Shown in pieces: positions 2,775 to 13,030 of a stretch of 20,000 nucleotides of DNA. The translations under genes and the position numbers were made by a program. The notes below the pieces were generated by a model. It did not search any database, was not told the DNA's origin, and saw nothing but the letters and a program-made list of their open reading frames with translations. Position 1 is the first letter of the stretch, and the number at the start of each line of letters is the position of its first letter. This DNA is from an uncultured virus (IMG/VR IMGVR_UViG_3300023174_000069) (lineage: Duplodnaviria > Heunggongvirae > Uroviricota > Caudoviricetes), in IMG/VR virus record IMGVR_UViG_3300023174_000069. One strand, written 5' to 3'.

Positions 2775-3215
2775 ATGAGAACGAAACTACTATTATCCAT
2801 CATCGCATTAGGTGTTTGCACGTCCGCCAGTGCAGATCCTAGAGACATATATGATAACTATCGCAGTTTCGACAGTGATCGTTATGTTGATTCAAGAGAC
2901 TCAAGCAACTCTTCTTTGAGTTCTGATCAAGAACGCATCATCGCAAATGAGAGGTTTGAGACCGAGATGCTCAGACAAGAGGCTCAGCAAGAAACCTATA
3001 GACAGCAAATAGCCTCCAGACAAAACTCTCAAAGAATTGCGGAAAATTCCAGAGAGATTCAAGAGAATCAACGACGATATGAGAACAACTCAAACATGAT
3101 CAATAACGTAAACCAAGCAGCCAACGCAGCGACCAACGTAGCTAGACAAGCAAAGACTATTGGAACGCTGATGAATGGTGGATGGGACGCATATCGTGAT
3201 GCATTTAATTGGTAA
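2775..3215 (+). CDS. Exported protein with signal peptide, Q/R/N-rich coiled coil
   Basis: MRTKLLLSIIALGVCTSASA|DPR looks like a Sec signal with an A-S-A cleavage site; start at ATG 2775. Confidence 0.75.
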   Translation: MRTKLLLSIIALGVCTSASADPRDIYDNYRSFDSDRYVDSRDSSNSSLSSDQERIIANERFETEMLRQEAQQETYRQQIASRQNSQRIAENSREIQENQRRYENNSNMINNVNQAANAATNVARQAKTIGTLMNGGWDAYRDAFNW

Positions 3216-3250
3216 AAATTTTTAGAATAAGAGATTGGTTTTTATATATA

Positions 3251-3399
3251 GTAGTCTCATAGTAACAGCCCTATTTCGACTAACATGAAGCTGGTAGCGC
3301 ATCAAACTGCTTCTATCTTTGGAAGACTTAGGATTCTGGCTGTGAGTTTTATAAGTCGCTCTTGTGAGCGCAAGAATGGAAAAATGAGCTATGGCGCTT
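3251..3399 (+). ncRNA. Putative structured non-coding RNA upstream of the hammerhead
   Basis: GC-richer intergenic segment with several complementary pairs: TAGTCTCAT/ATGAGCTA, ACAGCC/GGCTGT, GAAGC/GCTTC, CGCTC/GAGCG, GACTTA/TAAGTC. Confidence 0.4.
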
Positions 3400-3472
3400 C
3401 TGCACCTGACGAGCCCTGAAGGGCGAAACAGTGCGTAGACACGGCAACTATCGTGTCTCGCCTGTAGTGCAG
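3400..3472 (+). ncRNA. Hammerhead ribozyme, type I
   Basis: Stem I CTGCAC/GTGCAG; core CTGACGA (3406-3412); stem II GCCC-TGAA-GGGC; GAAA (3425-3428); extended stem III ACAG.GCG.AGACACG/CGTGTCT.CGC.CTGT; cleavage triplet GTA (cut after 3466). Confidence 0.93.
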
Positions 3473-3488
3473 TTATATTAAATAATCA

Positions 3489-3517
3489 TAGACTTGTAAA
3501 AATCTCTGTGTTATTCT
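3489..3517 (+). promoter_or_regulatory. Putative sigma70-like promoter for the ligase operon
   Basis: TAGACT (3489-3494), 17 nt, TATTCT (3512-3517) with extended -10 TG. Confidence 0.45.
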
Positions 3518-3551
3518 AAAACAACCACTTGCTTGTGGTTGTTTTTTTTTT
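3518..3551 (+). terminator. Rho-independent terminator
   Basis: AAAACAACCAC-TTGCTT-GTGGTTGTTTT hairpin running into a long T tract. Confidence 0.85.
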
Positions 3552-3556
3552 ATTTT

Positions 3557-4447
3557 ATGATTACTAGACCACTTTTAGCAGCAACATTAGAAGATTTGAG
3601 CACTCTCAAGTTTCCTGTTTTAGCAACACCAAAGCTAGATGGTATTCGAGTCTTAAAAATAAACGGACAAGCAGTAACAAGAAAATTCAAACTTATACCA
3701 AATGTTCACATAAGAGAGCTGTTAGAAAAGCATTTGCCCGACGGTGTTGATGGTGAAGTTATGACACCTGGCACATTCAACGATATTCAATCAAAAGTCA
3801 TGTCATTCGATGGTGAGCCTGAGTTTACATTTTATGCATTTGATTACGTCAAAGACTCTCTGATAAAACCCTATAAAGATAGAATGCTAGACATGGTGAA
3901 CACTCTTGAGTCTGTTGTAAAAGATTCAACTTTACCATTTTCTATCAATTTATTAACACCAGTATTAGTACGCACCATGCAAGAATTGCTAGAGCTTGAA
4001 TCGCAGTGCTTAGAGCATGGGTTTGAAGGTGTGATGATTCGTCAGCCAGATGGTAAGTATAAATGCGGCCGCTCTACACCAAAAGAACAAATACTCATGA
4101 AACTCAAACGGTTCTATGATTCGGAGGCTCAAATAGTTGGCTTTGAAGAGAAGATGCACAACGAAAACAAGCAGGAAAAGGATGAATTTGGTCTATCAAA
4201 ACGTTCTACTAAAAAGGATGGATTGATACCAGCAGACACACTAGGTGCACTAATAGTTGAAGATTTAAAAACCGGTGTAAAATTTGGTTTAGGATCGGGC
4301 TTTACAGATGAGCTAAAGAAGGAAATTTGGTCACATCGCAAGAAGTACAAGAATAAAATAATCAAATATAAATATCAATCAGTTGGTGTTAAAGACGCCC
4401 CGAGATTTCCTGTATTTCTTGGGTTTAGAAGTAAATTGGATCTGTGA
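3557..4447 (+). CDS. lig: Minimal ATP-dependent DNA ligase (Chlorella virus-type)
   Basis: Motif I TPKLDGIR, III DGEV, IIIa FYAFDY, IV EGVMIR, V LMKLK, VI PRFPVFLGFR; ~296 aa from ATG 3557. Confidence 0.95.
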   Translation: MITRPLLAATLEDLSTLKFPVLATPKLDGIRVLKINGQAVTRKFKLIPNVHIRELLEKHLPDGVDGEVMTPGTFNDIQSKVMSFDGEPEFTFYAFDYVKDSLIKPYKDRMLDMVNTLESVVKDSTLPFSINLLTPVLVRTMQELLELESQCLEHGFEGVMIRQPDGKYKCGRSTPKEQILMKLKRFYDSEAQIVGFEEKMHNENKQEKDEFGLSKRSTKKDGLIPADTLGALIVEDLKTGVKFGLGSGFTDELKKEIWSHRKKYKNKIIKYKYQSVGVKDAPRFPVFLGFRSKLDL

Positions 4448-9411: not shown

Positions 9412-9585
9412 CTATTTAGTCTTATTTCTGGTCTCCTGATCCTTTAGAAAAGACGCTAACATATCAACATAGATATCTAATTCGTATGGAACCATGCTTT
9501 CCAATTCTGTTAGAGAATATTTGTGATGCTGAATCATACTGAATAGAGTCTGGTATAAAATAGCCAGATTTGTGTGATTCAGCAT
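9412..9585 (-). CDS. gp51: Baseplate hub assembly protein gp51-like (57 aa, not in the ORF track)
   Basis: MLNHTNLAILYQTLFSMIQHHKYSLTELESMVPYELDIYVDML matches the short QHHKYSLTE.E.M.P.E..IY family found after gp26; TAATG overlap with gp26. Confidence 0.88.
   Translation of the reverse strand: MLNHTNLAILYQTLFSMIQHHKYSLTELESMVPYELDIYVDMLASFLKDQETRNKTK
9413..9419 (-). promoter_or_regulatory. Putative late promoter (CTAAATA)
   Basis: Overlaps the gp51 stop, upstream of the tape-measure-like gene. Confidence 0.45.
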
Positions 9586-10343: not shown

Positions 10344-10354
10344 TATTTATTTAG
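10344..10354 (-). promoter_or_regulatory. Putative late promoter (CTAAATAAATA)
   Basis: Overlapping CTAAATA/ATAAATA about 28 nt upstream of gp26. Confidence 0.55.
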
Positions 10355-12076: not shown

Positions 12077-13030
12077 ATGTCTAAGGGATATTTAGAGTTT
12101 ATAAAAAAGATGGCCGGTGCGGCCGATATAGTAAATAAAATTGTCGCCGCAGGCGCTGCTACAGGAAATTTAAATCCAGCGGCAGGTGCAGACATACAAG
12201 CTAATCTTGATCCTGACGCAGGAACAAAATTAGAAAGCAAGAACACAGAAGATGAGCAGTGGATGAAAGATAAGGGTGCTCTTATCTACCCACAAAATTT
12301 ATTTACCCCTGGACTGCAAGCATACATTTTATTTTTGATGAGAGATTCTAATCTTAGAAGCACCACGGTATACAAAAGAATTGGGATGTATATGCCTCCA
12401 GCCATAAAGGTTTCTTATGGTTCTAATTGGGAGGAAATTAATATGCCAGTTTCTCAAGCCGTAGATATGGGAAAAGATGTGGTTGATGCCGCAGGCAGCG
12501 CATTTGGTGGAACTTCCGCAGAAAAATCGTCGGCTGTTGATCTTGCATCAAATATCGCAACTTCAGGCGCAGCTAATATGGCTGACATGGCTACCGGGGG
12601 TGAAGCCTTCGGTAATTACCGAGATGTTCAAACTAGAAACACTACAAATCCTCATCAAGCTCTTCTTTTTAAAGGTGTCAGTTTTCGTGAATTTCAATTT
12701 AGTTTTGAGTTGTTAGCTAGAAGTCCAGAAGAAAGCGATAGCATACGACAAATAATAAAAACATTTAAGTGGGGTATGCATCCAGGAGGTGAACAAGATG
12801 CTTCATTTTGGTCTTATCCCAATACATTTGATGTTTATCTTCTAACACCTTCACACAAATATATGTTTAATATTTCTCAGTGTGTACTAACAAACATGGA
12901 AGTTGATTATGGCGGTTCTGGCGCCGCCAGTTTTTTCAAAAATACAGGAGCCCCAGTACATATAAATCTTAGTTTATCATTCAAAGAACTTTCAGTTCTT
13001 ACCAAAAAACTTATCGAAGCCGATTATTAG
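12077..13030 (+). CDS. gp48: Baseplate tail-tube cap gp48
   Basis: LIYP, MYMP, NPHQALLFKGVSFREFQFSFEL.ARS.EE...I..IIK.FK..MHP, CVLTNMEVDY, LSLSFKEL. Confidence 0.9.
   Translation: MSKGYLEFIKKMAGAADIVNKIVAAGAATGNLNPAAGADIQANLDPDAGTKLESKNTEDEQWMKDKGALIYPQNLFTPGLQAYILFLMRDSNLRSTTVYKRIGMYMPPAIKVSYGSNWEEINMPVSQAVDMGKDVVDAAGSAFGGTSAEKSSAVDLASNIATSGAANMADMATGGEAFGNYRDVQTRNTTNPHQALLFKGVSFREFQFSFELLARSPEESDSIRQIIKTFKWGMHPGGEQDASFWSYPNTFDVYLLTPSHKYMFNISQCVLTNMEVDYGGSGAASFFKNTGAPVHINLSLSFKELSVLTKKLIEADY
12089..12095 (-). promoter_or_regulatory. Putative late promoter for gp4, located inside gp48
   Basis: CTAAATA on the minus strand, 14 nt upstream of the gp4 ATG. Confidence 0.55.

Follow-up and report, generated by a model that had tools for sequence, protein, structure and literature searches.

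Phage genomes are known to place small self-cleaving ribozymes beside other genes. Theta ribozymes, which are HDV-like, adjoin phage tRNAs, as set out by Kienbeck et al. (2024, PMC10879173), and type I hammerheads (Rfam clan CL00010) are found in phages as well as prophages (Perreault et al. 2011, PMC3088659). The latter study describes the biological roles of bacterial and phage hammerheads as largely unclear, and states that a loop-loop or pseudoknot contact normally aligns stems I and II of the ribozyme (PMC3088659). As for the signals from which phages of the T4 type express their late genes, the late promoter is given as TATAAATA in T4 and KVP40 and as NATAAATA in cyanomyoviruses (reviewed in PMC2984593).

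The locus presented here lies in a stretch of 20,000 nucleotides from an uncultured virus, called the window below. Positions 3256-3466 of its + strand are a conserved stand-alone non-coding RNA gene, found in a small group of uncultured T4-like phages. What is new here is a structured RNA class without an Rfam family, carrying a phage hammerhead as a fixed 3' cap. Transcription, RNA ends and cleavage of the element we infer from its sequence, and we put at roughly 0.7 the probability that it is a stand-alone phage RNA of about 211 nt, with its own late-type promoter and capped by its own self-cutting hammerhead.

The phage of the window is T4-like, with Pfam matches to a gp33-type late-transcription coactivator, gp59, gp32, a T4 baseplate protein and a tail tube protein. 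Its gp32 shares at most about 52% identity with the proteins of the phage collection, the top matches being an unannotated marine virus record and Synechococcus myoviruses, and cultured phages gave no DNA match either to 3200-3570 (blastn) or to the whole window (megablast). Upstream of the element lie two further RNA genes and a protein gene:

470-866, + strand: one-piece, phage-encoded tmRNA (Rfam, 74.8 bits; missed by ARAGORN)
1540-1615, + strand: CyVA-1 RNA (Rfam, 43.4 bits, just above the gathering score of 41.4)
1759-2730, + strand: nucleotidyltransferase of about 287 aa, Pol-beta superfamily, with a GS...DSDVD motif and a helical C-terminal half

The gene order in nine contigs runs from the Pol-beta-type nucleotidyltransferase through a small variable ORF, the RNA, a set of variable genes (often on the opposite strand, or coding for HSP20) and an ATP-dependent DNA ligase to gp59; in L108 it was covered only up to the DNA ligase. 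The gene just past the predicted cut lies on the opposite strand and differs in L080, L082, L083, L089, L091 and L081 (phrog_22045, phrog_2496 or no family), and the interval that separates the DNA ligase from the RNA has the look of a hot-spot for insertions. A functional pairing of the nucleotidyltransferase with the RNA was considered and is not supported, as the gene is absent from the 8 kb upstream in L158, stands in opposite orientation in L116 and has a generic fold: its structural model (pLDDT 71) gave weak generic Foldseek matches to Pol-beta, MNT and aminoglycoside nucleotidyltransferases (best E 0.004), and tblastn found no homologue of it in cultured phages.

The tag encoded by the tmRNA is ANFNESAYALAA (562-600). 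A tmRNA gene lies about 0.6-2.4 kb from the element in all eight contigs examined (the window, five others and a further two); this linkage, which persists through two rearrangements, may be simple synteny within a narrow clade. Duplex prediction between the element RNA and the phage tmRNA was uninformative, since any long pair of sequences yields full-length duplexes. In L272 and L273, two divergent contigs, Rfam reported no CyVA-1 at gathering level; in the window a late-promoter-like box, CTAAATA (1521-1527), stands 13 nt before it.

Exact and degenerate pattern scans of viral contigs, together with one scan of metagenome contigs, place the element in 12 distinct phage or metagenome contigs, counting the window. 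The metagenome scan gained only two new members, and distant relatives may be missed since the scans required exact words. A covariance model trained on ten of the 12 members gives all 12 copies 73-180 bits; of 73 loci searched with it, the 71 others contained no further match at E<=1. One pattern scan of prokaryotes (one genome per species) returned 40 loci, none matching the model at E<=1 (best match 7.1 bits, E 3.8); 11 of these loci were read and set aside as chance matches, nine of them falling in one conserved coding region, presumably that of release factor 3.

The original prediction had suggested a homologue search with covariation analysis, and had allowed that the segment might turn out to be unconserved. 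Both analyses were run: the element (3256-3466) is kept in the 12 contigs, with compensatory changes and a mean column identity of 77%. Its remark that the segment before the ribozyme is GC-richer also holds, the GC content of 3251-3399 being 0.43 against 0.353 for the whole window, a value equalled in 11% of 149-nt windows. With permissive filters, Rfam 15 has no family overlapping 3251-3399 at E<=10, so that the cmscan proposed at the outset leaves the 5' domain without a family and sees the hammerhead below its gathering score. A lexical literature search found no description of the 5' domain, which does not prove that there is none.

Directly before the element stands a promoter-like box:

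3243-3250, + strand: box TATATATA, one mismatch from the T4 late promoter TATAAATA

That such a box precedes both the element and the tmRNA had been noticed from the window alone, and is correct: the 20 kb contain TATATATA at exactly two places, each on the + strand, namely 3243-3250 and 451-458, the latter 12 nt before the 5' end of the tmRNA. Shuffling gave at least two matches of this kind in 40 of 200 trials; the number of boxes therefore proves nothing by itself, and it is the conserved position in the homologues that matters. There the homologues have TATATATA, CTAAATA or the exact TATAAATA (in L158, which diverges most), and in 12 of 12 copies the box lies 7-8 nt before the CAUAG or CAAAG of helix P1. 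The late box of T4 spans -13 to -6, a spacing at which transcription would begin near 3256, on the first base of P1. The gp33-type coactivator encoded in the window is in keeping with such a promoter. CTAAATA is also found on the minus strand at 9413-9419, 10348-10354 and 12089-12095, 15-133 nt upstream of minus-strand genes including a baseplate gene; this placement is consistent with late promoters, and the count of YTAAATA (18 against 17.8 expected) is not above chance.

The part of the element lying 5' of the ribozyme consists of the following features:

3256-3346, + strand: rod-like hairpin domain of about 90 nt (P1-P4) with conserved internal loops, from the RNAalifold consensus and pair counts
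3256-3263 with 3339-3346, + strand: P1, covaries
3266-3268 with 3336-3338, + strand: P1b
3270-3273 with 3329-3332, + strand: P2
3276-3277 with 3325-3326, + strand: P2b
3280-3283 with 3319-3322, + strand: P3
3287-3293 with 3307-3313, + strand: P4, strong covariation, closes the 13-nt loop
3294-3306, + strand: apical loop GUAGCGCAUCAAA, 13 nt, from the alignments
3357-3370, + strand: P5, small hairpin CGCUC-UUGU-GAGCG, changed on both sides in 3 of 5 pairs
3371-3385, + strand: A-rich linker with conserved GG(A), AAUGGAAAAAU-like, from the alignments
3386-3399, + strand: invariant block GAGCUAUGGCGC (3386-3397) plus UU, directly 5' of stem I, from the alignments

RNAalifold on eight sequences and pair counts on ten (MAFFT) and on twelve (an alignment fitted to the covariance model) all agree on the rod. 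In the 12-sequence alignment its 33 pairs are standard in 95.6% of 385 cells; shifting the 3' partners by 1-3 columns lowers this to 27-47%. Changes on both sides occur in 14 of the 33 pairs (1-6 after such a shift), and the observed covariation score was reached by none of 500 shuffles; the 12 copies being close relatives, this signal comes in part from few events. The independent ten-row MAFFT alignment agrees, with 96.0% paired and 11 pairs showing double changes. Folding energy is not unusual for the 5' domain alone (z -0.56) and not significantly better than that of shuffles for the whole element (z -1.95), so that the case for the structure comes from the comparison between copies. The 5' domain and the hammerhead form separate domains in the minimum-energy structure of the window, and a covariation scan of all columns against all, run to look for further long-range pairs and too noisy given how closely the 12 copies are related, returned only the known pairs of stems I and III.

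This structure sorts the helices proposed earlier from the letters of the window. The helix CTCATAGT/GCTGTGAG is real, being the covarying P1. ACAGCC/GGCTGT stands for its CAG/CUG portion (3266-3268 with 3336-3338) and fails for the remainder, and GAAGC/GCTTC, placed at two sites, is found at just one of them, where it forms the strongly covarying P4. Good pairing of 3252-3260 with 3384-3391 is confined to the window and its closest relative, and the pairing of the supposed pseudoknot GACTTA/TAAGTC is not kept by the homologues.

Two blocks of this domain do not vary: the first eight bases of the apical loop, GUAGCGCA, and UAUGGCGC within the tail block are identical in 12 of 12 copies. Between them, GGA in an A-rich context is seen by eye in 11 of 12 copies, and a P5-type hairpin is likewise present in 11, being absent from L158; some homologues have an extra hairpin here. 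L158 (409-560, - strand), the member that diverges furthest, pairs its 5' end with bases immediately ahead of the tail (GUCCACAGU with ACUGUAGGAU), so that the rod is enclosed by a long-range helix and there is no separate P5. Loop and tail can pair as GCGC/GCGC in all copies and as AGCGC/GCGCU in seven of the 12, and the loop GCGC is unpaired at >=0.88 (that is, at least 0.88) in 10 of 12 predicted ensembles. The loop sequence GUAGCGCA is a candidate pseudoknot partner of 3393-3397, or else a candidate recognition site. As for the pseudoknot AGCGC/GCGCT, also proposed originally, it joins two unvarying blocks, and covariation therefore neither supports nor refutes it.

A search of the window for possible targets, using the complements of the two unvarying sequences, returned only the element itself. 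ARAGORN found no tRNA in the window, and no tRNA or tmRNA model matched within 3150-3600. Local likenesses may be seen between a D arm, in its two halves, and GGUAGCGCA with UAUGGCGC, and between UUCRAC and either a T-loop or the 5' region of tmRNA, but no model supports them. The rod, invariant loop and tail could be imagined as a recognition module locked to a retained, competent hammerhead, partly mimicking the D-arm and elbow of tRNA or tmRNA, in an effector RNA whose partner would be the phage tmRNA next to it or the host translation or RNA-repair machinery. We hold this to be distinctly improbable; if true, the RNA would serve as a decoy or a tag, or would provide a cyclic-phosphate end open to ligation, and the hammerhead would have a job beyond trimming. 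SRP, 6S, Y RNA, k-turn, CsrA-sponge and permuted-tRNA readings were weighed by eye and dropped; the 5' domain has no Rfam family at E<=10.

The remainder of the element, together with the first bases past its end, is a hammerhead:

3400-3472, + strand: type I hammerhead, from direct reading, an Rfam HH9 match and the 12-copy comparison
3400-3405 with 3467-3472, + strand: stem I, CUGCAC with GUGCAG, 6 bp
3406-3412, + strand: core CUGACGA
3413-3424, + strand: stem II, GCCC-UGAA-GGGC
3425-3428, + strand: GAAA
3428-3465, + strand: stem III, long hairpin
3464-3466, + strand: cleavage triplet GUA, predicted cut between 3466 and 3467

Segment 3251-3399 thus does adjoin stem I of a hammerhead (core region 3400-3472), as had been claimed, and the cut predicted after A3466 coincides with the end coordinate then given for the RNA. 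Stem I is open and stems II and III are closed, which makes the ribozyme type I and leaves nearly all of it on the upstream product. All 12 copies have the core CUGANGA...GAAA (as CUGACGA or CUGAAGA), the three stems and an NUH triplet (GUA in five, GUC in six and GUU in one), with U16.1 paired to A15.1. Compensatory changes are found in stem I of L158 (UUGCAC/GUGCAA) and at the base of stem III in L116. The match to Rfam HH9 (21.4 bits, E 0.0073) is below the gathering score of 52, probably owing to the long stem III insert, and no hammerhead was found at Rfam gathering level in the window, L272 or L273. The predicted probability of stem I is low (0.10-0.30) in four of 12 full-length ensembles.

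The distal part of stem III (3432-3461; compared in L086, L080, L108 and L158) is one of two unrelated conserved modules, a short one with the loop GCAACUAU and a long one, of whose four copies three contain a pair of GCUUCC-like (CUUCC) blocks. Between the window and L086 the rods are near-identical and the stem III modules differ, which suggests module swapping inside the ribozyme.

With a variable stem II tetraloop and a plain 6-bp stem I, the usual contact between stems I and II is not evident within the ribozyme. A pairing of the GCGC loop with the GCGC tail beside stem I would supply such a brace, and the 5' domain could then serve to brace the hammerhead or, as the original prediction had also envisaged, to control it. 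Cleavage would in that case be fast only once the rod had folded or had bound a ligand or protein, the hammerhead being the business end and the rod the sensor. The two invariant blocks are indeed complementary, with stem I at a distance of 2 nt from one of them, and the loop GCGC is predicted to be free in most ensembles. However, neither block ever varies, so that no covariation can be obtained for the pairing, there is no conserved downstream gene to be switched, and the 5' domain resembles none of the riboswitches or ribozymes in Rfam at E<=10. Moreover, a domain of 145 nt with its own promoter is large for a brace, and no pairing that competes with the core is predicted in the window. These points decide neither for nor against control of the ribozyme by the 5' domain, a role that seems to us rather unlikely.

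The DNA beyond the predicted cut is unrelated between loci, mostly running into the end of a convergent gene whose identity varies. A hairpin followed by a T run, of the kind found in terminators, occurs within 110 nt of the cut in four of 12 copies, one of them weak. The window has such a feature:

3518-3555, + strand: intrinsic-terminator-like hairpin plus T run, 52 nt past the cut, not conserved with the element

This good terminator is a counterpoint to an end made by the ribozyme. As terminators are found in few copies and the downstream sequences are unrelated, the hammerhead is nevertheless the sole 3'-end signal common to all of them.

Conservation of the element could have a different origin, in a small protein or in an intergenic signal at the DNA level. 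The window has an open frame of 44 codons at 3285-3419, which the original prediction had named as what might be translated instead, as well as a GGA-N5-AUG arrangement at 3378-3386 before a mini-ORF starting at AUG 3384. The longer frame is broken in 11 of 11 homologues (a stop at codon 7 in five; one without a start codon). The start of the mini-ORF is AUG in six copies, UUG in three and absent from three, yet its first codons are invariant even at third positions, and the changes elsewhere are compensatory in helices. A protein or DNA-level signal is thus hardly credible as the source of the conservation.

The idea of a stand-alone non-coding RNA, with a 3' end formed by hammerhead self-cleavage, is supported by the conservation, the covariation, the fixed box, the complete ribozyme and the unconserved downstream DNA. 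On this preferred reading, transcription would start from the T4-late-type box at 3243-3250. The 5' two-thirds of the RNA would fold into the rod, with its conserved internal loops and invariant apical loop, followed by the small hairpin, the A-rich linker and the UAUGGCGC block, and the last third would form the hammerhead and cut itself after A3466. The mature RNA would retain the ribozyme as a compact cap at its 3' end, which would bear a 2',3'-cyclic phosphate; the unconserved read-through, often antisense to the convergent gene, would be released with a 5'-OH. In forming the 3' end, the hammerhead would take the place of a terminator. The invariant GCGC loop and GCGC tail may pair, the rod bracing stem I, or may offer a surface for a protein or RNA partner.

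Most likely, then, the hammerhead trims the RNA to an exact 3' end. As the predicted cut is at the 3' edge of the ribozyme, the mature RNA would include the ribozyme itself. In HDV-like ribozymes the cut falls at the 5' edge of the ribozyme, leaving the tRNA free, and a ribozyme of that kind would be the better choice for a clean 3' end, so the hammerhead may do more than trim. This suggests that the hammerhead fold and the cyclic phosphate might also protect or mark the end of the RNA.

A more active part can be conceived for the retained hammerhead, which would keep its core, the 2',3'-cyclic phosphate and a free 6-nt guide (CUGCAC) after the cut: by reverse cleavage it could join the RNA to another with a 5'-OH and a GUGCAG-like sequence, in a tagging or splicing-like role. 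As PMC3088659 notes, type I is the only architecture in which most of the ribozyme and the cyclic phosphate end up on one product; the hammerhead is retained on the predicted mature RNA in 12 of 12 copies, and stem III has conserved modules beyond catalytic need. On the other hand, no candidate acceptor was found: the tmRNA resume-codon sequence GUGCAA matches at five of six positions in most members, but its flanks mismatch by eye. Nothing here indicates a source of 5'-OH ends either, and ligation of this kind, being pure conjecture, is very improbable.

Circularisation, as originally written, is unlikely as well. The Rfam scan shows no second ribozyme at the 5' end, where there is no GUGCAG either. 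A primary transcript starts with a 5'-triphosphate, and such a start, together with the lack of a second 5' ribozyme, argues against a circle.

The anatomy of this element makes the role of a hammerhead readable, as the built-in 3' end of one small RNA gene. It also offers a compact, testable system beside a phage tmRNA, namely a 211-nt RNA with one cut and two invariant blocks, and raises the question of why a phage caps an RNA with a ribozyme and a cyclic phosphate.

Compared with the phage and prophage type I hammerheads of Perreault et al. (PMC3088659), the one described here has the same core, three-stem layout, NUH site and kind of genome. Those hammerheads flank genes in long phage transcripts, whereas this one is the fixed 3' third of a small non-coding RNA with its own promoter; here, furthermore, the tertiary contact between stems I and II is not evident and stem III is long, with one of two conserved modules. 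The theta ribozymes (PMC10879173) are likewise small self-cleaving ribozymes beside a phage non-coding RNA gene, making its 3' end without protein enzymes. In contrast to them, our element uses another ribozyme class, has its predicted cut at the 3' edge, so that the ribozyme would stay on the product, and serves an RNA that is not a tRNA. Closest at hand are the tmRNA and CyVA-1 of the window itself, which are likewise short structured RNA genes with a late-type box just upstream, in the same region of the genome. The element has no sequence or model match to either of them (E<=10), and among the three it alone ends with a ribozyme.
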